A stretch of 63,985 nucleotides of DNA, filler included, from Licmophora abbreviata (Eukaryota), in assembly GCA_900291995.1 (NCBI GenBank). It is 15 parts of 15 records of this genome, joined end to end, with 100 filler letters (N's around TTAATTAATTAA, not from the genome) between each part and the next. Parts side by side here need not be neighbours in the genome. Positions count along the whole stretch, not along the records: positions 5,045 to 13,017 come from OLMU01005948.1; 14 more parts are not named here. One strand, 5' to 3'. This document shows positions 3,150-49,200 of the stretch, one piece after another. Below the pieces are notes generated by a model, which saw only the letters and a program-made list of their open reading frames with translations, searched no databases and was not told where the DNA came from. The position numbers and the translations under genes are program-made. Numbering within the stretch: the first letter of the stretch is position 1; every line of letters begins with the position of its first letter.

Positions 3150-4787
3150 TCAACTCGGCTTGCCGTGTGAGTGCTTGGCTTCGAGACGAACCCTCTTCTG
3201 TTCTCGCTGCCGCTGCTTCCAGGCCTGCTTCTTCTTTCGCTTTTTGCCAAGTGCCTTTTCTTTTTCGGTTTTCGCTTGTGGCTGTGCAGCTTTTCTCAAT
3301 TCCGTTGGCCGGCCTTCTCCCGCTGCTTTCGCAATCGCCGGGTTGGCGACAGGGTTCGACGGGCTTTCGTCGGTCCCTGGCGACGCCCGATTCTTTGTCG
3401 ATGTTGAGACAGAGAACTCCCCATTGTAGAATGAAACGCCCTCTGGAGGACCCCATGCCGGTTCATCATCAGCCATATTTCTCGGCGCCGCCGATGCATC
3501 GGTCGACGCATCGTACCTTTCGAAATAAGAAACAAAAAAGCCATTCGTCTCATCGTCGCGATCGGCACGAATCAGGCAGGCTGCTTGTTCCGGTGTCAGT
3601 CCATCAACTACGTGGCCGCGTCGCTTCCAGTGCAAAAGACAGCTCGGTGATACTATCCTCCACTCATCGGAGAACATTGCAATCGCTTGACTCACGACAC
3701 ACTCATTTTCGATCTCGTGCAAAGAGCATGTTGAATAAACGATGCGTTGCACGTTCGGAAACGACATGGCGTGCCGAAGTGTAGTCAGCTGAAAGTTCGA
3801 TAGCGATTGTAGGCGGGACGATGAAGCGACACCGTTCTCGTCGTCCTGCAAATCGGCATGTCGGTCTGGCGAAGTAAAGATTCCGCTACCCGAGCAAGAT
3901 GGATCCAAGAGAATCCCTCGGACGGCATCAAACTCCGAGGGAACCGTCTTGAGAAAGTCAGCGTGCATGGGACTCACACGCACAAGGCGGTGGTTATGAG
4001 ATATTCCTAATTGATCCAAGCGTCGCGTAAGCAAGGCCAAACGTTCCGAGGCACGATCGAGGGCGAACACTGTAAGCTTCTGGGGACTATTGCGATTCAA
4101 CAATAGTGACGCCAGGTGACTTGTTTTGTTTCCAGGAGCTGCGCAAGCATCCAAGATGTCACCCTCGAGCGGGCTATCATTTCCGTGGACTAAACAGAGA
4201 GCAGAAAAGCATGAACTCTTGTCTTGAAGCACGACCCGTCCCTGTTTGACGAGGTCGTTGTCATGGAGCGTCGTGCCCGGGGGCAAGACCAGCACATCCG
4301 GCACATGGATATCGGCAAAAAGTTCTCTCGACTGACCTCGTAGGATTCCGATAACCTCATCAGAGTCTGGACGAAACGCATTGATACGTACATAGCGTGG
4401 AAATGCCACGCTGGAGACCGCTCTTTGGGTTTTCTTGTTCCCCTGGATTTCTGCCAAGACACGACGAAGACATGCTTCCTTGGCCGTGAGCTTTCGCTTC
4501 AAGGCGCCTCCTCCTCGTATTCTACGATTCGGACCCAACAAAAGCTCATATGCTAATACGTATAGAAGTCCTTCGTTGCGTACGTTGTCGAACGAACTAC
4601 CCATTCGCTTCAACACTTGTCGCAGGACGGACTGCGAATCGAGCACGTGACAGACTTGCGCGTAAGTCGCCTTTGAACATTTTAGCGATCCTGTTTTGGA
4701 ATCATAGGCGATGGTCTTAATACTTTTGTGCTGAGTCCAGATCGTGGTCAGCATCTGTGCTGCAGGAGCGTACGGCGAGGACGACAT
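3150..4787 (-). CDS. NSUN5: 25S/28S rRNA cytosine-C5 methyltransferase (NSUN5/Rcm1 family)
   Basis: Motifs FPRYVRIN, LQDKSSCF, DACAAPGNKTSHL, LLDPSCSGSG, VYSTCSLHEIENE, TNGFFVS, plus a Lys-rich C-terminal tail. Confidence 0.93.
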   Translation of the reverse strand: MSSSPYAPAAQMLTTIWTQHKSIKTIAYDSKTGSLKCSKATYAQVCHVLDSQSVLRQVLKRMGSSFDNVRNEGLLYVLAYELLLGPNRRIRGGGALKRKLTAKEACLRRVLAEIQGNKKTQRAVSSVAFPRYVRINAFRPDSDEVIGILRGQSRELFADIHVPDVLVLPPGTTLHDNDLVKQGRVVLQDKSSCFSALCLVHGNDSPLEGDILDACAAPGNKTSHLASLLLNRNSPQKLTVFALDRASERLALLTRRLDQLGISHNHRLVRVSPMHADFLKTVPSEFDAVRGILLDPSCSGSGIFTSPDRHADLQDDENGVASSSRLQSLSNFQLTTLRHAMSFPNVQRIVYSTCSLHEIENECVVSQAIAMFSDEWRIVSPSCLLHWKRRGHVVDGLTPEQAACLIRADRDDETNGFFVSYFERYDASTDASAAPRNMADDEPAWGPPEGVSFYNGEFSVSTSTKNRASPGTDESPSNPVANPAIAKAAGEGRPTELRKAAQPQAKTEKEKALGKKRKKKQAWKQRQREQKRVRLEAKHSHGKPS

Positions 4788-5235
4788 GGTCGACAGCACG
4801 CAGCGCAGCTGAAAGTTTGGTTTGGGTTTGGGTTTTGGTTGGCCAGTATTGATGCTTTTCGCGCTTTCCCGCTTGAGTCGAATGGGTCAAGCTGGAACGT
4901 TGGGAAAAAATGTCCAAACATCACTCAAACTCTTCGCAAATCTANNNNNNNNNNNNNNNNNNNNNNNNNNNNNNNNNNNNNNNNNNNNTTAATTAATTAA
5001 NNNNNNNNNNNNNNNNNNNNNNNNNNNNNNNNNNNNNNNNNNNNAAGGGACAAAGGCAACACTTGAATCAAATCAAATCAAATCTAACTATGCATCGTAG
5101 TCGCTTACTGTCTGCGTTAATAAACCGATTGCCGGTTCTTCGTAAAACAGTGCGTAGGACCGCAATCGACTCATTCTTGTCCAGCCGCTTCGACACTCTA
5201 TATTTGCTTGAGCAGCCCTTCACTTCTGGCTAGCC

Positions 5236-7245
5236 TTAACGCTTCGATTTTTTGGATGACACGCCTTTCTGCAACTTGACGAGGATTGATCCAGTTGGCA
5301 AAGAGTACTCCGATCCTTTTGCGCCGCCGTGAGAAGTAATTCGCTCATCTCCCAGTAGCAGTGCTTGTAACTCTCGTTCGAGTCGACCCTGGAACACCAG
5401 CTCTGCACAGCCTTTCTTAAGCGCCGCGCGTCCTTCTGGGTCTGTATCGATCGTTCCCGAGCACGCGAATCGTCGGGTCACGTTGCCACAAAATTCGGAA
5501 ACATCAATGGAGAAAGCTTCCAGTCCACGCACACGGGTGACAAACTTGCGTCCTCCACGCATCGAGACGTCAATCAACACCTTTGGTGGCGTTCCGCGGC
5601 CCAATCGACGAACGTGACTTCCAGGCATTTCCACCACAGCAAAGGCAGGATCCATTCTGTCCATCCATCGTACCACCAAGTCCTTTCGGGATATCCGTTC
5701 CGGCGCCGATTGTTTCTTGAAAAGCGCATCAGTCAGTGCTCCGTCCAGTAGAACCTCCGCCGGGGACAGTAGTAATTCATTTTGCGTCGCGTACTTCTCG
5801 AGAATGGCCCTCGCTTCGGGCGTGGTCAACATGCCAGTTCCCTTCCGCTCTTTGCTTGTCGCATTCGCCGCCGCGACGTCGTCTGGATCGAGTCGTAGCA
5901 GCTTCACCCAATGATGCGGTACGATGAAAAGATGGACTATTGTCATTGCTTTCTTCTTCTGCTGGTGTTCCACTGATTTGGCATGCTTGAGGCCTCGAAG
6001 ATTTTCGTGCTTGCGATTGATCGCGACGAGAAAGCCAACTGGATTTTTGCCCTGGGCCTTAACTTCGACCAGCCCATTTTCTGCTTGGTCAGCAAGATAT
6101 GAACCGAACTTCTTCCACCTCGTCAGCTTTAGCTGAACGGTTGTGCCAGAGGGTCGATTGGGTAGAACGTGGTTCGAATAAAGGTTCGCTGTTGTGATCG
6201 GGAGCATTGCGTTCCCGAGAGCCACCAAAGCCTTGCAGAAAGCTTGGTGAAGGACTACTTCGTAAGGATTTTGATCCTCATGGTTTTCGTCAATTTCATT
6301 GTCTAGCGGTGCATCAGTAAGCATACTGAAGTCGCTATCGTCGGCGATTGACATTGACGTCAGCTCGACGGAAGGCAGCATGTTTGCAGCCGCCGTGACA
6401 GTATCGTGGTTCCCGTTCGAGTCACAGTCGGCCTTGATGGTAGATATGATCGGGTCGACAATCGTTCCCTCCACAAACCCTGAGTTTCCATAATGGCCAG
6501 CGTCAAAGGGTGCCCCGCCAATGGGATTGAGTCTTCCGTCGGCGAAAACCTTCGTACACTGGTGACTCCAGAGGTCATCACCGTAGCACGTCCAAATCTC
6601 GACGCCGACACCCTTAGTGCCCGGACCAATGTTGTCCGCCGCCGTACTCGAGGTCAATCGTCCCACAGCAAACGGCTGCACATTCCCCGGTATTCGAACA
6701 CACACTATCCCATACGAAGTTCCGGTACTGCTAGTTGCCTTCGGTAAGAACCGTATGCCAGCACGCATCAAATTCGCGCCTCGACAAAGGTACTTTGAAA
6801 TGGTTGACGATTGCAGTGTAACGGCCGGGAAATCGGGAATGACTGCCAAAAGTGCCAAAGTGGGAGCATGGACGATTTGGTTCGGACCCATATCGACCGT
6901 CATCCACACACATTGATGGGTCGAGCTGTATGGCCACAGCCATCTGCTACCGGTACTGTCAGTGCTGTCCTGTCCGGTGGATTTGTCGTTCATTGGCAAT
7001 GGCGTTGGTGACCGAAAGTACAACACCACCTTTCCAAGCATGGGATGGACAATTTTCCGTGCCGATAGTGTGCCTTCAAGGAAGACGGCAGCCAAGATAC
7101 TACTAGTCTTGGCGTCGGCATCGTTGCTGCCGAAGAGGTTTGTAGCGGCCAGTCTCAAATCTCGACGATCGGACTTGCGCAGCGGCGTATCCACCGCCTT
7201 TCTGCCTCCCTTCGTCACTACCGACGATCCTTCCTTATGAAACAT
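5236..7245 (-). CDS. EIF2D: Translation initiation/recycling factor eIF2D (ligatin)
   Basis: Pre-PUA start (MFHK...LRKSDRRDLR), PUA (LCRGANLMRAGI, GKGVEIWTCYGDDLW), winged-helix (LKLTRWKKFGSYL), SWIB-like region and C-terminal SUI1 (RGGRKFVTRVRGLEAF...ELVFQG). Confidence 0.9.
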   Translation of the reverse strand: MFHKEGSSVVTKGGRKAVDTPLRKSDRRDLRLAATNLFGSNDADAKTSSILAAVFLEGTLSARKIVHPMLGKVVLYFRSPTPLPMNDKSTGQDSTDSTGSRWLWPYSSTHQCVWMTVDMGPNQIVHAPTLALLAVIPDFPAVTLQSSTISKYLCRGANLMRAGIRFLPKATSSTGTSYGIVCVRIPGNVQPFAVGRLTSSTAADNIGPGTKGVGVEIWTCYGDDLWSHQCTKVFADGRLNPIGGAPFDAGHYGNSGFVEGTIVDPIISTIKADCDSNGNHDTVTAAANMLPSVELTSMSIADDSDFSMLTDAPLDNEIDENHEDQNPYEVVLHQAFCKALVALGNAMLPITTANLYSNHVLPNRPSGTTVQLKLTRWKKFGSYLADQAENGLVEVKAQGKNPVGFLVAINRKHENLRGLKHAKSVEHQQKKKAMTIVHLFIVPHHWVKLLRLDPDDVAAANATSKERKGTGMLTTPEARAILEKYATQNELLLSPAEVLLDGALTDALFKKQSAPERISRKDLVVRWMDRMDPAFAVVEMPGSHVRRLGRGTPPKVLIDVSMRGGRKFVTRVRGLEAFSIDVSEFCGNVTRRFACSGTIDTDPEGRAALKKGCAELVFQGRLERELQALLLGDERITSHGGAKGSEYSLPTGSILVKLQKGVSSKKSKR

Positions 7246-7367
7246 GATGAGCAGATGGCTAGGAGCGTGATTGGTCCGTCAGAACCGAATCGTTACAGAT
7301 ATTGTCTGAATGGATGCTCCTCGGCATGGCTGAACTCGGTTCATCATCATCAGAGTTGAGTTCCAAA

Positions 7368-7402
7368 CTGAAAACTGAAATCTGAAATCTGAAATCTGAA
7401 AA
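7368..7402. repeat. Tandem (TCTGAAA)-type heptamer repeat in the eIF2D/XRN divergent intergenic region
   Basis: Sequence reads ctgaaaactgaaatctgaaatctgaaatctgaaaa. Confidence 0.75.
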
Positions 7403-7699
7403 CTTCACGCGCATCAAATTCTCCCACCATCGGCGCGCGACACGCACGTTTGGAGCGCGTGCTGTGTGTATTCTGGACCACGAAATTCGAGCGTCTTGAC
7501 CATGATGACACAACAAACTGAAGTCTGAGCAGTTTCACGTTCATCAGCCGTCCCGTGGCCCATTGAACCGGCCAGTTATTCTGCAGACCCAAGCTGGCTC
7601 ACAGTGCCTCTATCGGGTACTCCATTTCGACACCAATAACGATAACGCTCTAATCGACGAGTTTCTTCGGTCGCCTAGCTGGTACTGGCTACAGTCACG

Positions 7700-10600
7700 A
7701 TGGGAGTCCCCAAGTTCTTTCGGTGGATGTCGGAACGCTATCCAAAGATTAATCAGCGTGCTGGTCTGCCGCCAGACCAAGAGACTTGCTACAAACACTT
7801 CGGTCAACCTCCTCCAGTGCCTGTCGAAGAGCCAGACCCGCTATCGACATGTGGATTGCCTCCCCCAATAGATCGCCTTTACATTGACATGAACGGCGTG
7901 ATCCATGGTTGTTCCCACAACAACTCGAATCCTGAAGACAAAGAGGAAGACTCCGCCAGCAAGAACATTACCAGAAAAGACATCTTTCGGAACGTATGTT
8001 TCTACTTGGATCGAATCGTCGGAGATATTGCCAAGCCGACACAACTTGTATACATGTCAATTGATGGAGTTGCGCCTCGGGCCAAGCTCAATCAGCAACG
8101 CAGTCGTCGCTATCGCTCTGGTCGGACAGGTATGATTGAACGAACCGTCTACGAGGCGCACATCCACGCTCTTGAAGAAAAGAAGCGGGACGCAATGGAG
8201 GAGGATGCAGACGCTGATGCTGGAACCAACTTTTTGAGCAATTTGTTATCGTCGAGCAATCCAGATGCGCAAGTCAAAGAGGTCGAGCCCGGGCGGTACA
8301 CGGGCAAGTTTGAAACGCAGGATGTCGAGCTAGCCAAACATTCGGACGATAGTTTTCATTCCAACTCAATTACTCCAGGAACTCCCTTTTTCCAAGAGTG
8401 CACGAAACACATTGAACATTTCATTCGGTACAAGCTTTCTCATGACCCGAAATGGAAGCACTTGACCATTATCTTTTCTGGTCCCGATGTACCAGGGGAG
8501 GGCGAACATAAGATTATGGACTTCATGCGAAAAGAGAAATACCGGGACGACTACGATCCGAATTTGAGGCATTGCATTATGGGGCAGGACGGAGACTGGA
8601 TCATGCTTGGTCTAGCAACACACGAACCCAACCTAGTTCTCCTGCGCGAGCAAGTTATTTTCGATATGACCAGACGAAATCTCCTGCAGCGAAATACCAA
8701 TGGCATGGACATGTATATATTCAATGCCAACTTTGAGTGGTTGCACATGAATGTCCTTCGAGACTATCTGGCATACGAATTCGAGACTGGAGACGTCATT
8801 CCTGACAACCCGTTTGATCTAGAGGCGACTATCGATGATTTCGTGTTCATGACATTTTTTGTGGGCAACGATTTTCTCCCTCACATGCCAGCGCTCGATA
8901 TTGCGGACGAAGCGTTCGAATTGCTGTTTCTGACGTACAAGCGCCTTCGATGGAAATGGCTGAAAGACGAGTCACGCCCCCCGTACATCACGAACGCGGG
9001 AGACATAATTTGCGGCAAGAGACTCGAGCATTTCTTTTCTGCCCTGGGTGAATATGAAAACCCATACTACGACAACAAGAAACGAGATTCCAAGGATCGC
9101 ATCGAGAACTGGCGAAAAAGCGATGAACGATTGGGTGAGACACTGTCATGCGGTCAAACTGTGCTGTTGATCTCGCCACTTGCCCGCTTTCACTCACAAC
9201 TTAGATGCTCGTTGCCTCCACTTTTGATGTATGATTTGTAAAGGATTCAAGTCTGCGATTCCGGATGATGAGGTAATAGAGTCCAAAGAACAGCTGGATA
9301 GAGCAAAGTATCGCGAGATGTTGCAATCAATCGACCCCGTCCAGGCTAGTGCCAGGAGCAACTCTTCATCCCAATTCTCGGCAGTCCTCTCAGGTTCCGA
9401 TCTTCCCTCAGGTCTATCTGGAGATGATGTGGAAGAGGGCTTACTGTCTCGTTTTGGAAAGCTTCTCCAGTATTCGGTTTCCGATGCAGATGAAGCGTCG
9501 GGGCGGATCCTCAAGTTCAACGCGATGGACGACAATGATACAAAAGGGCGATACTACTTTGATAAGTTTGGATTCACACCATTTGATGCGGAAAAGCACA
9601 TGGCCTTACGCAACGCATACATTGAAGGGCTGGTGTGGACCTTGAAGTATTACTATCATGGTGTGGCTTCCTGGGAGTGGTACTACCCCTTTCACTATGG
9701 TGCGTACTTTTCCGTGTCATTGGCGCCTCCTGTCACCAACTGCCCTTCGCCTTGGTGTCATTACTAATGCTTTTGCTGTTATATTGGATCCTATGTTAAG
9801 GGCCCATGATTAGCGATTTGGTGGGTGTCGAGGAGATGCTTGCGGAAGTTTCATTTGACGATCGAGTCGGGGAACCCCTACGACCGTTTGAGCAGTTGAT
9901 GGGTTGTATGCCCCCGTCGTCATCGTACATGCTACCAGAACCCTATCGATGGCTCTTGACCGATGAGTCTTCCCCGATCATAGATTTCTACCCCCGCAGC
10001 TTCACCGTCGACATGAACGGGAAGCGTTGGCCTTGGGAGGCAGTTGTAATGCTACCGTTCATCAATTCGAAGCGTTTGAAGGAAGCTGCTAGGACCCTGG
10101 TCACGGACGACATGCTATCGGAAGACGAGAAGAGTCGTAACAGGCACGGACATGCTCTTCTTTTCTCAAGAGATGACTCCTCTTGCGAAAATGTTCCAGC
10201 TGTTGGAGAAGGCGAAGGATTCGTCGCGATGGCCGACTGCAAAGTACCGAGAGTTCTGTTCAAGGAAACGCAATGGAATTTTGAACCCGACGGGCATGTC
10301 ACTTTTCGGCCAGAGCTGGAAGAAGGAGTGGTCTACCCACTGCCGGGCTTTGCAACGCTTCGGACCGTCCCTACTAAAAGATTGGTTCGCCGGAGAATCG
10401 GTATCAATGTTTTCGGGTTGCGAAGCAGGTATCGCACGGCGATGCTGGAGCTGAGCGATACTCTACCAGAACTTCCTCCCGTCGAAGTGCTTGCCTCGAA
10501 ACTCATTGGCACGTCTCTCCAATTTAATTTTCCTTTCTTCTTAGAAGGCTTAATCACTGCTGTTTCCAGTAGTGATATGACGGCTAGAGGCGTTGGCGAG

Positions 10601-12242
10601 AGCGGCGTACGATACTACGAGAAAGAAATCGAGGCGCGAAAGGAACGTACGTTGACCTTGGTCAAATCGCATCTATTTGGAGAGAACTTGACGGGAAGCG
10701 GCGGCTGGAAGATCCCAGCTGGCGACGTCACCGTTTCGGTTCGGCCATTTCGAGGTCTCAAGACAATGCCAGATGGTTCCACAGTGAAGATGTTCGCAAA
10801 ATTCGAAGTTGAGCTTCCGCTCGTTGCCGCACTTTGGGGTCCCCACAAAAAGGATCCACGCATTGCCGACATCCCGGCACTCCTTGAAAGAGATCCGTAC
10901 TTTTCGGAAGCTCATGAGGGCCTTGTCCTCACCGGCGGCTCAGTGTTAGCCGTGGACCCTAAGTCAGGCATGGACTTGCTTCCCGATTTACCCGATGTGC
11001 ACACGCCCTTAAATGTCGCCGTCGAATCCTCTCTGCTACCGTCCATTGGTGTCGGCATGCCAGAATTACCCCGGAAGTCTTTGGGCGCCGGTGGTGCCCG
11101 GTCACTACTTGGATATTCGGGCGCTTCGCGTGAAGTTTCGACCTCGGCCTTCCAGATGAGCTCGACTCATGTCGCTTCAAGATGTGCTCGAGGACGTCAA
11201 GTACGCTCCGATATACCTGTACACGGGTCGACGCAAGTTCAGCGACCAATGGCAGGTGGTAGACTGGGGCTGGTCTCATTCATTGATGACCGCCGCAATG
11301 TACGCAAACACCCGTTGAGGACGAAAGCACAGGGGCGCACAGGTCTTCTCGTCATGGGTATCGCTTTGTTAGCCTCCACATTTCTGGGTGGCAGTGGTGT
11401 ACACGCCAACAGATGGTCGTGGCTACCATGTCGAACAGCGACTTCGATTCCGCGATTCGCGGACACGTACAGTTGGGATTCCCGCGGCGGGGCTCAGGAC
11501 GGCCATATTGACGAAAGAATCGCATCGACCCCACCTCTTGAGTTCGCCCATGGTACCACGACGATATCTTTTGTCTTCAAAGGAGGCATTGTTGCTGCAG
11601 TCGACTCGCGCGCGAGTATCGGCAACTTTGTTGGGTCCAAGACGACTCAGAAAGTTCTCCCTGTGAACACGTAAGTTCCGTATCATGTCCGTACTGTACA
11701 CTGTCCTTTTGATTATTGCTGTTGGCTCATCGGTGTGATTGGCTAACGATTGCAGACACATGTTAGGAACTATGGCTGGTGGCGCTGCTGACTGCGGCTA
11801 CTGGATCCGAAAACTAAAAGCTGAAGCATCTCTTTACGAGCTTTCTCAAGGGAAACGAATGTCCGTCGCCCGAGCATCCCGCATCTTGTCGAACGCAATG
11901 TATGACAATCGTGCTCTAGACCTCTCGATGGGGACCATGATAATGGGATTCGATACAGACGACGAAGGACCGAGAATCTACTACGTCGACAATAGCGGTG
12001 TTCGAATCGAGGGCGACGTCTTTGCGGTCGGATCGGGGAGCACGTTTGCATTAGGAATTCTAGACACAGAAAGGACTCCTGATATGACTGAAGACGAGGC
12101 TATTGCGTTAGGAATAAAAGCAATCCGGCATGCTACATTTCGAGACGCCTTTTCAGGTGGGTTTATTGGAGTGTATGTAATCAACCAAGATGGATGGAAG
12201 AAGGTGTTCAGCAAGGACTTGGCTAGGTCCTCTCAAGATTAA
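7700..12242 (+). CDS. XRN1: XRN1-type 5'-3' exoribonuclease fused to proteasome subunit beta5 (4 exons: 7700-9134, 9244-9699, 9801-11670, 11756-12242; about 1415 aa)
   Basis: XRN motifs MGVPKFFRW, DRLYIDMNGVIH, DGVAPRAKLNQQRSRR, SNSITPGT, PGEGEHKI, GNDFLPH, YPFHYGP (joined across intron 2), PFEQLM, DMNGKRWPWEAVV. Three phase-compatible GT-AG introns (109, 101, 85 nt). Exon 3 has no stop between the XRN and beta5 coding sequence. Confidence 0.85.
11555..12242 (+). CDS. PSMB5: Mature proteasome beta5 (chymotrypsin-like) module at the C-terminus of the XRN ORF
   Basis: AHG|TTTISFVFKGGIVAAVDSRAS...TQKV...MLGTMAGGAADC...AVGSGS...RDAFSGG. Thr1, Asp17, Lys33 and the beta5-type Met45 are all present. 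Intron at 11671-11755. Confidence 0.92.
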
Positions 12243-12672
12243 CTGGATAAAATGCTACCAGGTATTGGATTTAGTTTAGAATTTGAAATAGCAACTGACC
12301 AGCATGAAGTCTCCTTGCAACGAGAGATCAAGCGCGCAAGCGGCCTCGCAACGCATGCGCAAATAGAGGATCGAGATATAAGCTGGAAAGGGGACAAGTT
12401 ACTTCCATGTAGCTCCTGAAGTGACGGCATGTGTGCAAGCTCTCAGCTCCGTGTTGGTTCGAGGATTGGGTTCGCTACTGGATACCAGCTCTACGGGTCG
12501 ACCGCAGAGCGCTATCTATGACATTCAAACTTGGTTCTGGTCTGAATCCGTTCCGTCTACTATGAAGCACATGGAGGTTCGAGAGTAGACCATGGACTCG
12601 CTCTGCTTCTACGTCACGTACTAAAGTTGCGGACACAGTCCATCCTCGACGACACATCATCGCATCCTAACC

Positions 12673-12939
12673 CTAACAGCTTTCAAACCGTGTCGGTTTC
12701 GACACTTGATCTCGAGATTGACGTCGTCGCTTAGGCTGAAAGTCAGTTCCGAATGGATATCCAAACAAAGACTTGACTGTCTCGTCGACGGCCTTGCGTT
12801 TTGCAGCCGAAAGGAGATACATCGAGTCTTCCGGGGGTTGGGCAGCGCCGCTACTATGCTCGTCTACGTCCATCTCTTCTGTCGGAACGAAATCTTCGTC
12901 ATTCTCGCTACCTTCTGAGTCTCCAGTATTCCTCATCAT
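12673..12939 (-). CDS. Hypothetical protein fragment with acidic N-terminus
   Basis: 88-aa ORF with SENDEDFVP acidic motif and basic KRRR patch. Exon structure unresolved, and it lies near a spacer. Confidence 0.3.
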   Translation of the reverse strand: MMRNTGDSEGSENDEDFVPTEEMDVDEHSSGAAQPPEDSMYLLSAAKRKAVDETVKSLFGYPFGTDFQPKRRRQSRDQVSKPTRFESC

Positions 12940-14417
12940 GGTCTCCGCATCCGATGATGTCGTTGCGGCTGTCGCTGACCTTACCTTCGTTTTGGGCCTC
13001 TCCGGTCACACCTCGCGNNNNNNNNNNNNNNNNNNNNNNNNNNNNNNNNNNNNNNNNNNNNTTAATTAATTAANNNNNNNNNNNNNNNNNNNNNNNNNNN
13101 NNNNNNNNNNNNNNNNNAGGCGCACAGCATCGTGGCAGTCGCATCGTGAACCTGGTGAGATCGATCTTTCACATTCCTAAAATTCCTTTTGTATCAGGAA
13201 AGGAATCGGAGAGGCTCAGTCGCAACGACGGCGACGACGAAACAACGGGCTCTACCCAAACTACTACAAGAAGAGTCTCAGGCATTGCATCGCAAGTACG
13301 ATCTACCATGACGCAGTCGATACTCGTGGTTCCTTTTCGTCGTCCTGGTTCGCGAAAAGATAAACGTCGCTATCCATTGAGAAGGTCCATTGCCCAGCCG
13401 GCGTCGTCTCGTGAATGGCACCAGAATCTATCGTTTCGTGGGCTCTATGAGGGTGCGTCTACGGCATCCGCGCTCGATGCGACAAACGAATCGATGTGCT
13501 GTCGTATTCACAAGCAGTCACTGATTGAATTGTCGACGTGGCTGCTGTGTCATGGCAAGGAGTGGATCGGGGGTGTACTTGTTCTGTTACTTTGGAGTGT
13601 TCCCGGGCGTGTGCTGACACGAGTATGGGGTCCGATTCACCGATTTTTGACACGACTTTCCTTGGCATTGCAGCGCATGTACCGCTTCCGCAGAATGCCA
13701 ATAAACATTTCTTACAATTCTCTGGTTGGTTTCAACATGAAACACATCGGATTTCGACGGGAGTCGGGAGAAAGAAGTACGTCTACGCTAGTGGAGCAGC
13801 ACTGTGGGGCGTGCGTCAGACAATACTGAAGAGTAGTACTGTCAAGCCACCGGGGAGGCCCCTTTTAAGACGAAGAGGGCGATCCCAACGAGAGCGGGTT
13901 TGAAGAATAGATCCAATGTCAGGCCGTGTTGATGTGTAAGATACTACTTGAAGTACTTCAGTTTTTGAAATTCACGTATCCTTTTCGAGTCGCCCGGTTT
14001 TTGCATGACTGCTAATATGAAGTTCCCTCAACGCCGTTGTCGTGTAGTCTACCGGAATGCCAAACGGTACACGGTGCACTAGAACTTTGCTTGCGCCGTG
14101 AAGCGAACTAGCGTGCGGACAGTAGACTACATTCTTGAAGCGAAGATATCCGTCTTCTCGAGGTTTCCTTCAATGGTCGCAACGGCACGCGAAAGCCCAA
14201 ACGCAGAACTGTACGAAATCATCTCTCCATTGCGACTGTCGTCGATGCCACTAACCTTCATTCATATTTATTGTCGATTCAAGAACGTAGCACTGACCCT
14301 CAGTTGACGGCCTGAGATCACCTGAAAAGTGGCCAACGAAGGACCTGGTCTACCGGTACGGCCATACCGCCGCAATGCCGCCAAGCAATTGACAAAGCAG
14401 CACTCTCTTTGCTTGCT

Positions 14418-43298: not shown

Positions 43299-46200
43299 AT
43301 GTCATCCTCTCATCGACGTACCCATCGAAGGGACTTTTCGCTGGAACTAACCGAGCCCAAGAAAAAACCGGTGGAATTCGAGCTGAATGCTCGACAGCTG
43401 GAGCTTATGCAGCAGCAGCATCGGAAGCGTGGTGGCGGAGCAAAGATTTCGACGACGCAACCAGAGGGGGAAATCGTCCATACAACAAAGCAGATACAAC
43501 GAGAGTCTCCTTCTAGAGTGCCGTTTCAGACGAAATCAAATGTAATGAAGAATGAATCTGTGTCGTTCGACGTCGACAGCAAGAAACATCATGCTCCTCG
43601 CTCGACTGCGGCCTCCACGACTATATTGAAGCAGAGTGACACAGCCCAGGACGACGACCAGAAGAAGATACTGAGATCTGTGCTGAGAAAGAACGCGAGT
43701 GGGAACAGAAATATGACGACGACAGCCCAAAGCCGATCGACCTTTCAGCCGAGTTCGAACACTCCCGAGCAGCGCGAGTATCTGCGCCATGTCCTCAAGT
43801 CGTCGGCCGCGACTGCCCTGAAACGAGACGTCGGTAACAATACGCGAAGCAGGAGATCAGGATACAATATAAAGTCTGTGTCGAATTCATCTGCACGCTC
43901 GGAAATCTCGTCGGCTGCTACCTCGACCCAACTCGAGGAAGATCAGCGCGTGCTTCTGAAAAAGGTGCTGAATCGGTCGGTCCAAACGAGCGGTAAGGAG
44001 ACGAAACGCCAAACGAAAATGCCAAAATCACCCCTTCGGCCCATTCCAAAGGAAGCGATTGCTTCGAGCAAGTCTCCACAGAAAGAACAGAAGGGATCTG
44101 AAACAAATGGCAGCAAAGGGAGGCGACTGTTGTTCGGTAGGGTCGAAGACGAGAAGAGCGCCTTGTACACGCCAGTTTCGGCGATTCCCGGATCTGACGA
44201 ATCTTCCAAGACTGCGGAAGAGAAAGTACAAGCAAGAAGACCCGATAGTGCCAGTGTTCTCACGATGGACATGGGTGGAACACTGATGGAGCGACTCATG
44301 AGGCGACAGCATGAGCGCGAGGCGGGACTGACGAGCTCACACGCATCATCGTCGACAACGGAGACACCGTCGGCGACCCCCACTACAGCGAGGTCAATGC
44401 ACACTAAACCTCCATCATCTGTTTCGTCTTCCCGACCATGTGTCTTAAATGTCCGCTCCTTTTCAGGACCTCCACGAGAAGGCTGCTATGAAGCGTTCTT
44501 GCAGGTGTTGCGGAAGGAAGTGGCTGGGGATCACACCGAGGTGGGTGCTCTTAGAAACCGCGCAGTGTCCTTACCGAGTCTCGAGCTTCCATTTCTCTCA
44601 CCTCGTCCTCTCCTTTCACATCTATAAGCTCTGGACAAGTTTCAGGGCTGTCTTTCAGAAGAACGCTCCGCTTCATGTATCGGAAAAGCCTCAGCGGGTC
44701 AAATTCGATTCAAAGACCAAAAAAATGCTTGTTGAGATGAACTTACACTTGAAAAGAGCCTCGACCATGGAATGTGTAACGGAGACACAGCTGGTGAGCG
44801 ACAAGAAGTTGACCAAGAAAGAAAAAGAAGAGATTCCTGTTGCGCGCAAGTCGATTGCGGATAGGATTCGTCGACTGTCCGAAGCAACAGCCACTGCCCC
44901 TCCATTGCCCTCCATAGACGAGCCTACACGAAAATGGACACCGCCCCCCAAGTCCGCTACTAAATCACCCGAGGGCAAGTCTCTCTCGCAAGAAGTTCTG
45001 ACGAATGCAAGTGTCGCTGGGAGTGAAGGGTCGGCAACCCAAGGCACGTCAATAGCCAATGGTATCGGACGTGTCGGTTCTTCGGTGACGGAAGGTTCAT
45101 CAGACGCTCCTACTCGATTCACCAGATCACATGAGCCACAGCATACTCAGAGCAATGAAGTGGTAGCGGTGACCATATCAGATTCCTTGCTGGCAGATGC
45201 ACGGCAGACAGAGGATCTGCCGCTCATTCACCTCAATGGGCAAACGAACGATGAATTCGTCGAGGAATCAACTGATCAAGATTCGGTGACGAGCGATCGA
45301 GATTCTGATATCCTCTATGATCAACGCAAGTCTTGGTTGGCTTCACACCGAGAGAAACAAGCACTACAAGCTGGTGGGAGTATACTTGCATCGGATGAAT
45401 CTTCTCATGCAGCAGTTCCATCGATGCGTACTTCAAGTCTACTTGATGCTGTCCCAGAAGAGGAAAGTGTGATTGTAGCAGACATGCTGACTCCGAGGAC
45501 ACTAGCGGGTCGAAAGAGGGGATTACGTCGAGCTAGATACTGTATCTGCGGTCGTACCCTGGGCAGGCGTCAAACTGAGACCGACAACCGAAGTCCGGGA
45601 AACAGCCACTGCTCGTAGCATTATACATGTCGGGAGCACAGCGAGAATACCCTCGGCTCCTGAGATTCAGTTGGCAGGACAAAGGAAAGCAGAAGCACTC
45701 TTGACACCCACAGTCCCAAATGAGGCTCAGAAGAACGAGGCTGAATTTGTCGCCCCGTGGTCGACGTTGAAACTTCGATCTGTAGAACGGTCCCAATCTG
45801 AGACACCGTCACGGCCCAGCAAAGATGTTGTGAGCGAAGTGCAGGCTATCCCGAGAGGATCGAGTGACCCTCAGCAGCCACAGACGGACACAACTCCTGT
45901 ACAGAGACAAGTAGGCGCGATGTCTCGATCTGCGCTGCTATCCGATATGAGTACTGATATGCCATCGAACGGACAATTGCAAACTGGCGACCAGATTGAT
46001 CTTGCGAGTCTGCCTTCAGATCTGTTCGACTCGCAGTCAGACGCCGCCATCATTGAGCTCCTCGGGGGTTCCGATATTCCTGCTAGTGATCGTCTGACCT
46101 CCGTTATCGGAAAGAAAGTGATTTTTGTCGCCCAATCGACTTTGGGACGGCCGCTGTCTCGGATCGAATGGGGTGTGTCAAGGCACGCCGTCAAGTCTCT

Positions 46201-49200
46201 CACACTTGACATGGCTGACAACCGAGCTGATTTGGCTTTGCTAGATGGTTCTTGTAAGTCGCTATTCTTTTCGAACGTGGAGGGTGTGCTCCTCTTTGCA
46301 GGAGTGTTTTATCAGACAACCGCTTTGCATCCTGGAATCTCGATGGAAGTCGCAACAGCATCGACAAAGATGAACCAACGAGATCTTCCGAACGAGACCG
46401 AAAGAAAGCATCGACACAAGCAAGAAGCGGTGGAAGACTTATCTGGTCCTGCCAAGGACCTTGTTACCGGTGGATTGACGGAGGAGGAACAAAGGGTGCT
46501 CGAAACATATAGGCAAATGCGACTTACGAAGAATCCAGAACAGGCGATCCAAGAGGTGATGGAGACGGAGTCCGCCCCGTCCGGCCTCAGTGAGGAGGAA
46601 GCGAATGCGGTGTCAACGTATCGGAAAATGCTCAAATTAAAAATTCCGGCCGACGCTGTACGACACAAGATGAAGAAAGATGAGGTCTCAGGGAGGATTG
46701 TGCAAGCGGTCTTTTCCCCATCGGCTAGTGTCAACCAGGCAGGATCAAACTCGGAGAACGACAATGGTACCCTATCGGCAGAGGACGAACAAATAGCTGA
46801 AGACTACCGGAAGATGCTGAAGTTGCGTATTCCGCCCGATGCAGTCCGCCACAAGATGTCGAAAGATAAAGTTGACCCGAGGATCATTGATGCGGTCTTG
46901 GCGGCTTCACCAGATGCGGTCTTGGCAGCTTCACTAGAAAATGACAACCCATCACCTAACAACTCAAAGTTGTCTGAGTTGACAGAAGAAGACGAAAGTG
47001 TTGCTTTGACATATAGAAAGATGCTCAAGATGATGATACCGGTAGATGCGGTGCGACACAAGATGAAGCGTGACCAGGTTGATCCAAAGATTGTGGCGGC
47101 AGTGTTGGGTGCCGACCCACAGACACCTTCCGTGTCTGCCACACCGGCAGTCGTTCTCTCTGCAGACGAAGAAATAGTGGCGTCAACGTATCGCAAGATG
47201 CTCAAGATGATGATTCCGGCGGATGCCGTCCGTCACAAAATGAAGAAGGATCATGTGGACCCCAAAATTTCTCTGGCTGTCCTAGGTCCCGATCCCACCG
47301 AAACCCCCCGCCTCACAACCTCTTCCGTGATCAACTTGTCGCCGGAGGAAGAAGCCTGTGCCGCCCCGTACCGCAGAATGCTTCGTGTAAATATTCCGAT
47401 TGACGCGGTTCGGCACAAGATGCTCAAGGAAGGTGCCAACGAGAAAGTAATCAAAGCCGTCATCGGCGGTGATGCAAATGCGTCAAGACCAGCAATGATC
47501 AAGAAGTCGTCTGCTCGCGGCGCCCAGTTAGTCAATATTCATTGGACAGTCCTGTCCGGCGAGGAGCTGGACAATAGCATTTGGCGGGCTGCCAAAAAAC
47601 CAAGAGTGGCAGCACCGCAGCCGGAAGGTAATGACATCTCAAAGCTTGTCGAGCTTTTCCAGAAGAAGACGAACAAGGGAGTTGGTGCAGCGACGGAGTC
47701 GACGAAAGCGACCGGTGACGATAAGGCGAAATTGCTCGATTTGACTCGGTCAAACAACATTGCAATCAGTTTGAAGGCTTTCAAGGAATTTTCACATCGA
47801 GACTTGGCAGATACGATAGCGAACTTGGATCCTCTGCGAAAGATCCGAGGCGAGCGAGTTCAATTTGTGAGAGATCTCCTTCCGACACCGACTGAGGCGA
47901 AAGTCATCAAGGCTTATAAGGGCAGCGATTGTCGGCTCGTCGCGGCAGAGCTATTCTTCCGGCAAGCTGTCACTGTGCCTCGAATTAAGGCCAAAGTTCA
48001 GGTCCTGCAGACGATGGATACTCTCAAGGATACCGCAACGGACCTTCGCGAGAACCTCAAGGTACTTGCACAGGTGTGTCACCAGGTGATGACAAGTATC
48101 AAACTTCAAGAAGTTCTAGAGATGGTTCTTCATGTAGGAAACATCATGAACGAGGGTACACGCACTGGTGGAGCGGCAGGCTTCAAGTTTGATTCACTGC
48201 TCAAGCTCACCCAAACGAAGAGCTCAGACGGCAAGACGAGTGTTCTTGATTATATTGTCATGATTTTCGTCGCAAAGGAGCGAGAAGACGCCCTAGATTT
48301 GTTCTCAGATTTTCCGGAGTGTCAATTGGCAAGTCGTATGGCCATCTCCGACATGCTTGGCGCAGCTCGTACGATGAATGCTTCACTAGCCAAATGTCGA
48401 ACTGAGCTCGATCACCTGCGAAAAGATGCTGGTATCGCTTCTGATGACTCTAACGGAAGTCCTGCCGACGCTGTCGCAACAGATCCTCGTGCTGCAATGC
48501 TGGCTGCAATTCAGAAACGGGGAGCTGCACAAGAGCCAGAGGTACCAAGAAAGAAAGAGTTCTCACATCGGGCAGCGTTCCTCGCTGCGATTGAGTCTAA
48601 TTCCAAAAAGTCTGCTGAGATGCAGTCTGAATCCTCAGAAAGCACGACTTCAAACTCAAGGGAGGACGAGGACGAGGAGGATGCATTTGAAGACGTCAAG
48701 TCCGATGCTGCTACCCCTGACCGAGAAGATTCCATTCACGGTGGAATCGAGCGACTAGAAGAGTTCATGGAAGAGGCAACGGACATTCTCGAAAAGCTTG
48801 AACAGGATAGAGACCTAGCCATCGACGCATGCAAGGCACTTTCACGTTACTGTGGAGAGAGCGGAGGTGAAAGAGCGACGACGACGGTACTTGGAATTCT
48901 AGCGTCCTTCGCCACGATCCTCGCTGAGGCGGTAAAGAAACATCATGCACGCGTGGAAGCAGAAGCGCGAAGAGAGGCGGCTCACAGAAGGAAGGAGCAA
49001 CAACAGGCGACAAAGAAGAGCAAGGGTCCCGAGAGTACTCAGACGACCCCAGTGAAAAACTCAGTAATTGGAGGACAATCTGATCAGCTCGCCGGCGACC
49101 ACGGGATCAAAGAAGGCACTCCAAAACAAGCCGATGCTTCCGGGTCTGTGATATCGACATCGATCGACGCAGAAGTCTCCCTCTGACAAGCAATCCCTGG

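Follow-up and report, generated by a model that had tools for sequence, protein, structure and literature searches.

The window, a stretch of 63,985 nucleotides from Licmophora abbreviata, consists of contigs chained by N44-TTAATTAATTAA-N44 spacers. One contig piece (5045-13017; 7973 bases) holds a whole gene on the plus strand, at 7700-12242, which reads as a single 1415-codon frame with one terminal stop and is divided into four exons by GT-AG introns. Its start codon, ATG at 7700, is the first Met 3' of an in-frame stop at 7676-7678. The gene joins exoribonuclease (XRN) domains to a proteasome beta5 domain, and its features are as follows.

7700-9134, plus strand: exon 1, with XRN_N (the entire Pfam model) and the beginning of XRN_M
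9135-9243, plus strand: intron 1, GT...AG, the sole donor/acceptor pair that yields an open frame
9244-9699, plus strand: exon 2, the central part of XRN_M
9700-9800, plus strand: intron 2, GT...AG; the junction peptide YPFHYG/PMISDL agrees with the intron-less homologue L006
9801-11670, plus strand: exon 3 as a whole, from the end of XRN_M to the start of beta5
9801-10909, plus strand: first part of exon 3, with the end of XRN_M and XRN1_D1 (Pfam match 10340-10819); family-wide conservation ends with this stretch, at about residue 1000
10910-11335, plus strand: linker in exon 3 (residues 1001-1142), unconserved, with the frame open
11336-11407, plus strand: signal-peptide-like segment in exon 3, consisting of Arg1143 and the uncharged TGLLVMGIALLASTFLGGSGVHA (residues 1144-1166), after which come Asn1167 and Arg1168
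11408-11554, plus strand: pro-region in exon 3 (residues 1167-1215), possibly transit-peptide-like, with an RGG motif at residues 1192-1194, PPLEFAHG at its end and the Gly-1 codon at 11552-11554
11555-11670, plus strand: start of mature beta5 in exon 3, with the Thr1 codon at 11555-11557, including Asp17 and Lys33
11671-11755, plus strand: intron 3, GT...AG, within the beta5 domain; the junction VLPVNT/HMLGTMAGG agrees with homologues
11756-12242, plus strand: exon 4, the remainder of beta5 (Proteasome, E 4.7e-36), with the stop TAA at 12240-12242

An in-frame fusion of these two enzymes had been proposed in a first-pass annotation, and both the 1415-codon frame and the conserved architecture of the relatives bear out the proposal. 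The motifs that it named and the junction EFAHG/TTTISFVF lie where it placed them. The frame 9800-11674 (plus strand) is open over the 624 codons between its flanking stops, and the Pfam search found XRN_M (E 8.9e-38), XRN1_D1 (4.4e-13) and Proteasome (residues 1-40) within it. A search for stops in the junction region found none in frame in 10910-11554 (215 codons), whereas this stretch has 5 and 8 stops in the other two forward frames, and 13, 5 and 4 in the three reverse ones. Base shuffling of the same stretch gave a stop-free sequence in only 3 of 5000 trials. The open frame across the junction is therefore well beyond chance, which supports the fusion.

The fusion is conserved across diatoms. 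XRN domains and PF00227 (Proteasome) were sought together in one chain, another check that had been suggested, and were found in 75 of the 80 closest long relatives, with all four families present in 73. The organisms named among these 80 are all diatoms (16/16), and fused members derived from transcriptomes come from Skeletonema, Detonula, Corethron and Pseudo-nitzschia. Of the metagenome loci retrieved by beta5 alone, 8 had upstream sequence of 1.2 kb or more; XRN lay in the same open frame in 7 of these, and every independent metagenome locus with upstream XRN was open across the junction (7/7). The intron-less frame of L006 extends over 1551 codons on a 15.5-kb contig. Identity in the linker is 0.02-0.12 per 25-residue block. 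At another locus, L007, the frame opens just 26 codons 5' of Thr1 with no in-frame helix, possibly owing to an intron or another structure.

An artefact, in which two adjacent genes were misassembled or read through by chance, might be suspected because the window is made of short chained contigs and because fused transcripts are known from relatives, not from this gene. However, the junction sits 1.46 kb from the closest spacer, in keeping with the earlier statement that it is mid-contig and more than 1 kb from any spacer, and 75 database proteins share the architecture, as do transcriptome sequences and 7 independent metagenome contigs. An assembly or gene-model artefact is effectively refuted, and we give it next to no probability. 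The advice to look for transcripts over the fusion was answered in part: fused transcriptome-derived members exist in other diatom genera, but sequencing run X1 (share 0.06; its kind is a guess) contributes four contig pieces of 35-213 bases to the window, none of which spans the gene. One of these pieces matches 11402-11561 with zero differences. We are confident that the XRN-beta5 fusion is real and is translated as a single chain.

Literature searches found no paper describing an XRN-proteasome fusion. The first-pass annotation likewise knew of no characterised protein with this architecture, but more than 70 database entries have it, under automatic names. The one literature match on 'gene fusion' concerned Tetrahymena and other fusions. 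A search of the ESM Atlas returned nothing beyond generic proteasome clusters.

Judged by its domains and residues, the N-terminal half is a paralogue of the Xrn1-family 5'-3' exoribonucleases that comprises the catalytic core and D1, without D2-D4. XRN_N (PF03159) is matched over its full length (E 2.8e-81, model 1-241 of 241), and among solved structures XRN2 and Xrn1 chains match best (E 1e-70 to 1e-75). In an alignment of 81 sequences (MAFFT, fast setting), D63, D122, E267, E269, D297, D299 and D391, as well as K129, Q133, R136 and R137 of the 5'-phosphate pocket, are invariant wherever covered; we take these seven acidic and K/Q/R/R residues to be the Xrn1-numbered active-site and pocket positions. 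The fused XRN thus resembles the cytoplasmic 5'-3' exoribonuclease Xrn1 (Pacman) in XRN_N, XRN_M, D1, the seven acidic residues and the 5'-phosphate pocket, but differs from it in having no D2-D4/SH3. The first-pass annotation had likewise seen no such domains. PF18334 and PF18129 were absent by Pfam from the gene and from all 80 fused-type relatives, and were present in 40 of 40 canonical Xrn1 matches. Full-length Xrn1 with D2-D4/SH3 is found in diatoms too (P0081-P0089), so the fused XRN is a truncated paralogue. The protein's residue 1 is aligned with the first residue of solved XRN2. That the XRN half is itself targeted was considered and ruled out, since its N-terminus is the canonical MGVPKFFRW without a presequence.

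In the beta5 half, Gly-1, Thr1 and Asp17 are invariant wherever covered by the same alignment, one of the 80 sequences covering the Lys33 column has Glu while the other 79 have Lys, and PPLEFAHG is conserved before Thr1 among relatives. The S1-pocket positions are beta5-like in the alignment. The AlphaFold2 model of L006 has a confident beta-subunit fold. On this sequence evidence, the beta5 is catalytically intact. XRN and beta5 each have their catalytic motifs, as had been claimed, and the invariance of the catalytic residues points to selection on both. The fused beta5 shares no more than about 58% identity with canonical beta5. In quick trees of sequences without taxon labels, a branch with SH-aLRT 92-100 parts the diatom-type beta5 from canonical beta5. 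The branch joining the diatom type to the other signal-peptide-bearing beta5 group has a support of 28, and long branches may distort these trees. As to separate canonical genes, for which a check had also been advised, full-length Xrn1 was found in diatoms, but canonical beta5 P0246 as query gave no diatom-named match among the best 120 of 5193, almost none of which are named.

Between the two halves lies a helix that the earlier annotation did not mention. It is uncharged, about 20 residues long and preceded by Arg/Lys, and each of the 79 sequences extending to the junction has it 42-118 residues upstream of Thr1. Scored as the maximum of Kyte-Doolittle hydrophobicity in a 19-residue window, it reaches at least 1.06 in 79/79, at least 1.2 in 74 and at least 1.6 in 55. 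The median maximum is 1.73 in the fused type versus 0.37 in canonical beta5 propeptides; among the 117 canonical propeptides scored, 4 reach 1.2. At least two Lys/Arg stand immediately upstream of the helix in 67 of 79 sequences, the uncharged stretch has a median length of 20, and small residues follow downstream. The homologous segment of L006 was modelled by AlphaFold2 as an isolated helix (pLDDT about 80) whose flanks score less than 50. Canonical beta5 (PSMB5 / yeast Pre2) resembles the fused beta5 in its Proteasome fold, Gly-1/Thr1, Asp17, Lys33, pocket residues and xEFxHG/TTT junction, with an autolytic propeptide in the canonical form, but differs in that this helix is nearly missing from its pro-region and in that canonical sequences group apart from the diatom type in the trees.

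In the stand-alone relatives (Leptocylindrus, Thalassionema and Proboscia types), the helix segment is the N-terminus of the protein. The Thalassionema and Proboscia-type proteins begin with Met-basic-hydrophobic sequence. At the Leptocylindrus-type locus L001, beta5 forms a gene of its own: its upstream neighbours are encoded on the other strand, and the 10 kb upstream contain no XRN. Another 17 cluster representatives that resemble beta5 but fall outside the diatom group also begin with a classical signal peptide. Its hydrophobicity, the charges that flank it and inspection of the sequence suggest that the helix resembles a signal peptide, which in the fused gene is internal, at residues 1143-1166. 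To our knowledge, cleaved signal peptides acting about 1100 residues into cellular proteins are unusual, and this counts against an internal signal. A plastid-stroma signal was disfavoured on the weak evidence that no aromatic residue is consistent at +1: F/W/Y/L occurs at +1 of a roughly guessed cleavage site in 7 of 79 sequences, the crude -3/-1 rule placing the sites plainly too early. The net charge of the pro-region, counted from roughly guessed and unreliable sites, is positive in 45/79 and negative in 20/79.

The periplastidal compartment contains ubiquitin machinery and some 20S subunits, and we know of no proteolytically active periplastidal core demonstrated so far. The list of periplastid 20S subunits was reportedly enlarged by Stork et al. 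in 2012. For Phaeodactylum, Moog 2011 (PMC3101018) reports targeting signals on periplastid alpha2, alpha7 (two), beta2, beta3, beta6 and beta7, and no 19S cap; a 2025 reference table (ASAFind 2.0 Table S6, PMC12136025 supplementary file 1) adds s-alpha3-1 and s-beta1. An s-beta5 is missing from both of these subunit lists, and fuller lists may exist elsewhere. The conserved helix, the stand-alone forms that begin with it and the position of the diatom type outside canonical beta5 favour a periplastid-targeted beta5. The fused beta5 is probably a periplastid-type (symbiont-type) subunit and not a cytosolic one.

Two other explanations of the fused chain have to be considered. According to the one put forward in the first-pass annotation, the XRN acts as a giant propeptide or as a tether of RNA decay to the assembly of proteasomes. 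In its fuller form, the subunit would be an ordinary cytosolic or nuclear beta5 from which XRN, linker and helix are removed by Thr1 autolysis during 20S assembly, the helix perhaps anchoring the precursor to a membrane or aiding assembly. The fusion and the catalytic residues on which this proposal was built are real. Invariant Gly-1, Thr1 and Asp17, nearly invariant Lys33, conserved PPLEFAHG and beta5-like S1-pocket positions all agree with it, and so, weakly because names are scarce, does the failure to find a named canonical diatom beta5. However, given the invariant Gly-1, Thr1 and Asp17 and the conserved PPLEFAHG, autolytic release at Thr1 is expected under any model, and the proposal leaves out both the conserved helix and the placement of this beta5 outside the canonical group. 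A cytosolic subunit that began with the helix, as the stand-alone relatives do, would go to the ER; a comparable segment (at least 1.2) occurs in only the few canonical propeptides counted above; and it is established that propeptides are held in the chamber of the maturing 20S, which cannot fit a domain of about 130 kDa. We consider a giant propeptide, including the variants for the helix, unlikely and weaker than a periplastid beta5. It is also conceivable that the XRN frame continues into beta5 by accident, that functional beta5 with its signal at the N-terminus is produced on its own through an internal promoter, an alternative transcript or internal initiation, and that the cell tolerates the full-length chain as a by-product. 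The short forms starting at the helix in the Thalassionema, Leptocylindrus and Proboscia types, the lack of sequence conservation in the linker and the derivation of the transcript support from relatives of this gene would fit such a scheme. Stops and frameshifts in the linker would then be harmless and common, yet the 7/7 loci and the window are open, and full-length fused transcripts exist in several genera. In addition, a Met within 25 residues before the helix was found in 26/79 sequences versus 38/79 in a control stretch, and 17/79 have none within 60 residues; since Met is not enriched there, there is no sign of an independent start of beta5. Separate production of beta5 therefore seems improbable to us.

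If the fused gene encodes a periplastid beta5, the helix and pro-region would form a bipartite targeting signal, in which a transit-peptide-like stretch comes after a signal peptide and which became internal when an XRN paralogue was fused upstream. That the signal peptide of a periplastidal beta5 became internal in this way, with the chain split at the chloroplast-ER membrane, seems to us about an even chance. The XRN part would be synthesised and folded in the host cytosol. As the helix left the ribosome, the nascent chain would be brought to the chloroplast-ER translocon and its C-terminal part would pass through the membrane. Signal peptidase would make a first cut downstream of the helix, and beta5 autolysis at Gly-1/Thr1 during 20S assembly would make the second. 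The splitting of the chain at the internal signal peptide is a step that we propose tentatively. XRN would then remain on, or leave, the cytosolic face of the membrane, perhaps degrading mRNAs translated there, and beta5 would proceed to the periplastidal compartment. It is possible, though we lean slightly against it, that the gene encodes one cellular polyprotein for two cytoplasms, with XRN on the host cytosolic face and active beta5 delivered to the periplastidal compartment as the chymotrypsin-like subunit absent from those lists.

The diatom periplastidal s-alpha2, s-alpha3, s-alpha7, s-beta1, s-beta2, s-beta3, s-beta6 and s-beta7, as far as the cited sources describe them, are likewise 20S core subunits with a signal-peptide-like segment and a further presequence. 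The fused gene differs from them in that its predicted signal lies about 1140 residues in, behind a nuclease. The proposed logic is also like that of viral polyproteins with a cytosolic N-terminal product and an internal signal. In hepatitis C virus core-E1, an internal signal peptide is cleaved by host signal peptidase, and the downstream product is across the ER membrane. The fused gene differs in being cellular and in having a proteasome subunit as its downstream product, and its cleavage is a proposal.

Diatoms are major primary producers, and protein turnover in their four-membrane plastid is unsettled. If this gene is the periplastid beta5, the compartment could possess an active protease, and screens for N-terminal signals would miss the subunit because its signal is internal. 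A conserved in-frame fusion in which a signal-like helix separates an RNA-decay enzyme from a proteasome subunit would also add a rare case of a cellular polyprotein divided by a membrane. If the XRN is instead a giant propeptide, the gene would encode an unprecedented kind of proteasome subunit precursor.

The XRN exoribonuclease core and the proteasome beta5 subunit were found to lie in one gene of the following structure.

7679-9241, plus strand: XRN_N and XRN_M (Pfam)
9228-9767, plus strand: XRN_M (Pfam)
9800-11674, plus strand: XRN_M, XRN1_D1 and residues 1-40 of Proteasome (Pfam)
11739-12242, plus strand: remainder of Proteasome (Pfam)
7700-9134, 9244-9699, 9801-11670 and 11756-12242, plus strand: exons, with GT-AG introns
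11336-11407, plus strand: hydrophobic segment R-TGLLVMGIALLASTFLGGSGVHA (sequence)

The spliced exons form one frame of 1415 codons with a single terminal stop, in which Gly-1|Thr1, the beta5 autolysis site, occupies residues 1215/1216. The Pfam matches and the exon model reproduced the coordinates and the Gly-1|Thr1 junction of the first-pass annotation. Its statement that exon 3 passes from XRN into beta5 without a stop was borne out by the stop-to-stop open frame at 9800-11674 (plus strand, 624 codons). The unconserved stretch 10910-11554 contains no in-frame stop, against 4 to 13 in each of the other five frames, and only 3 of 5000 base shuffles of it were stop-free. Because the window consists of separate pieces (about 1.2 to 10.5 kb) joined by 14 spacers of the form N44-TTAATTAATTAA-N44, with stops in all six frames (1034-1133, 4945-5044, 13018-13117 and 11 further sites), neighbourhood across a spacer is meaningless. 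The gene lies wholly within the piece 5045-13017, and the junction, described as mid-contig and more than 1 kb from any spacer, is 1.46 kb from the nearest one. With the open frame and the exon model, this within-contig position confirms the in-frame fusion. An eIF2D-like gene (WH_eIF2D and SUI1; 5239-7278, minus strand) is head-to-head with it on the same piece, with about 420 bases between the frames, and the preceding piece carries an NSUN5-like RNA methyltransferase (3153-4886, minus strand). Elsewhere, one open frame (45506-49183, plus strand) matches formin FH2 (E 2.5e-62) and, over 50 residues, CCDC53 of the WASH complex (E 3.8e-21); proline-rich, low-complexity sequence may account for the latter match.

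The 624-residue exon-3 product was searched against longer proteins, and the best 120 of 464 matches were listed. The first 80 share one architecture, in which the XRN domains are followed by D1 but D2-D3/SH3 are missing; Proteasome is also present in 75 of these 80, which is the one-chain combination that the first-pass annotation proposed to look for, and all four families in 73. Three of the five lacking Proteasome still extend to G|TTT and end 39-43 residues beyond it. The remaining 40 listed are ordinary Xrn1 with D2_D3 and SH3, none with Proteasome, and in this they differ from the fused type, in which the first-pass annotation had seen no D2-D4/SH3-like domains. They include diatom Xrn1 (e.g. 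Thalassiosira exigua), and the fused XRN is therefore a truncated paralogue. All 16 fused matches listed with an organism name belong to diatom genera, a look-up confirming this for Thalassionema. Transcriptome-derived fused matches among those listed come from Skeletonema, Detonula, Corethron and Pseudo-nitzschia. A SAP domain (PF02037) was found in six fused-type relatives (P0022, P0024, P0038, P0063, P0075 and P0077), two of them also with PF13297; neither family matched the window protein.

Metagenome loci were retrieved via the beta5 part alone (best 80 of 383 kept), so this set is not biased to fused forms. Eleven were of the diatom type, eight of them with at least 1.2 kb of upstream sequence, and in seven of the eight (L002, L003, L005, L006, L008, L009 and L010) XRN, linker and beta5 share a single open frame. 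In L006 the frame is intron-less, with 1551 codons on a 15.5 kb contig. These results show that the gene is a conserved fusion, transcribed in relatives.

In an alignment of the window protein with 80 relatives, the seven acidic XRN residues, the K/Q/R/R pocket and beta5 Gly-1, Thr1 and Asp17 are invariant wherever covered, and beta5 Lys33 is Lys in 79 sequences and Glu in one. Both enzymes keep their catalytic motifs, as first proposed, and this sequence conservation shows both halves to be under selection for catalysis. The XRN N-terminus aligns with solved XRN2 and Xrn1 chains from residue 1, and XRN is therefore without a presequence.

Conservation between the window protein and its relatives ends at about residue 1000 and returns at about 1205. 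Within this gap lies a feature overlooked in the first-pass annotation: all 79 sequences reaching the junction have, at 42-118 residues ahead of Thr1, a hydrophobic segment free of charged residues. It is usually preceded by RGR or KGR and often followed by small residues (e.g. -NA, -HA, -AxA). The 19-residue hydropathy maximum of diatom-type pro-regions has a median of 1.73 (at least 1.2 in 74/79, at least 1.6 in 55/79), compared with 0.37 in canonical beta5 propeptides (at least 1.2 in 4/117). When the final 330 residues of L006 were modelled with AlphaFold2 (18-row alignment, mean pLDDT 69.5), the segment formed an isolated helix (pLDDT about 80) between disordered flanks (below 50), with a confident beta5 fold. 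An RGG motif (11477-11485, R1192-G1194; often [IV]RGG[DE] in homologues) occurs within 60 residues before Thr1 in 41/79 family members and could be part of a transit-peptide-like region or of the propeptide.

Unfused relatives carry this segment at their N-terminus. In L001, the eighth of these metagenome loci and of Leptocylindrus type by cluster names, beta5 is a separate gene whose frame opens 324 codons upstream of the stop; the two genes upstream of it lie in the reverse orientation, and tblastn found no XRN within 10 kb upstream. In its product, Met and a short run of polar or basic residues lead into the hydrophobic segment, and 'complete' TransDecoder frames from two Thalassionema species and a Proboscia-type protein start likewise. 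At L007:848-1549, the frame of a diatom-type beta5 begins just 26 codons ahead of Thr1 and includes no hydrophobic segment; this locus may have a pro-region intron or a different gene structure. In a profile search over 1.84 billion cluster representatives, all XRN-containing matches fell in the diatom-type group. Among representatives P0438-P0548, 17 qualified as bearing an N-terminal signal peptide (Met start, Thr1 at residue 30-140, and a 15-residue stretch beginning within the first 25 residues with a mean hydropathy of 1.5 or more) and 36 more were plainly canonical. Signal-peptide-bearing stand-alone beta5-like proteins with G|TTT include P0438, P0442, P0455, P0459, P0466, P0469, P0470, P0472, P0484, P0487, P0491, P0492, P0495, P0496, P0498 and P0527; this sizeable class may be the periplastid beta5 of other algae with complex plastids. 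Two quick maximum-likelihood trees both separated canonical beta5 from the diatom type (SH-aLRT 100 and 92). Fused and stand-alone diatom-type sequences formed one group (support 97) and the other signal-bearing sequences a core group of 14 rows (support 99), the order among the three groups having a support of just 28.

Moog et al. 2011 (PMC3101018) describe periplastidal-compartment-targeted 20S alpha2, two alpha7, beta2, beta3, beta6 and beta7 in Phaeodactylum, five of them localised there, and report no periplastid 19S cap; Cavalier-Smith 2017 (PMC5756292) likewise attributes capless periplastid 20S proteasomes to diatoms. The ASAFind 2.0 reference table (PMC12136025, supplementary file 1) lists s-alpha7-1/2, s-beta2, s-beta6, s-beta7, s-alpha3-1 and s-beta1 as periplastid-localised. 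It lacks s-beta5, a point on which Stork et al. 2012 and the Moog 2011 supplements may also bear. The fusion is already in databases under automatic names, and the literature searched yielded no paper describing an XRN-proteasome fusion; it combines known kinds, namely an Xrn1 paralogue, proteasome beta5 and periplastid targeting. We infer that the beta5 half is a periplastid-type subunit and that the helix and pro-region are its bipartite targeting signal.

An artefact is effectively excluded by the recurrence of the fusion in 75/80 first-listed relatives (best 120 of 464) and 7/8 metagenome loci. The first-pass annotation took XRN to be a giant propeptide of beta5 or a tether. The conserved fusion and the retained catalytic residues support part of that interpretation, but it missed the hydrophobic helix between the halves. 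The giant-propeptide model would lead if diatoms had no other beta5; the key point is whether they also possess a canonical one. A search with a canonical beta5 gave no diatom-named match among the best 120 of 5193, almost none of which carry names. Alternatively, beta5 might be expressed separately from an internal start. However, the stretch ahead of the helix shows no enrichment of Met (within 25 residues in 26/79, versus 38/79 in a control stretch; none within 60 residues in 17/79), and the frame runs open through the linker in all independent loci. Production of beta5 therefore seems to rely on the XRN frame being translated.

The simplest mechanism would be a polyprotein with XRN and beta5 in one chain. 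The XRN part would fold in the cytosol, the emerging helix would target the polyprotein to the chloroplast-ER translocon for passage of its C-terminal part across the membrane, and the products would be separated by signal peptidase and later by Thr1 autolysis. This proposed mechanism would resemble that of viral polyproteins with internal signal peptides. The targeting signal would have stood at the N-terminus in the ancestral forms, as in those still unfused, and would have been internal since an XRN paralogue fused upstream.
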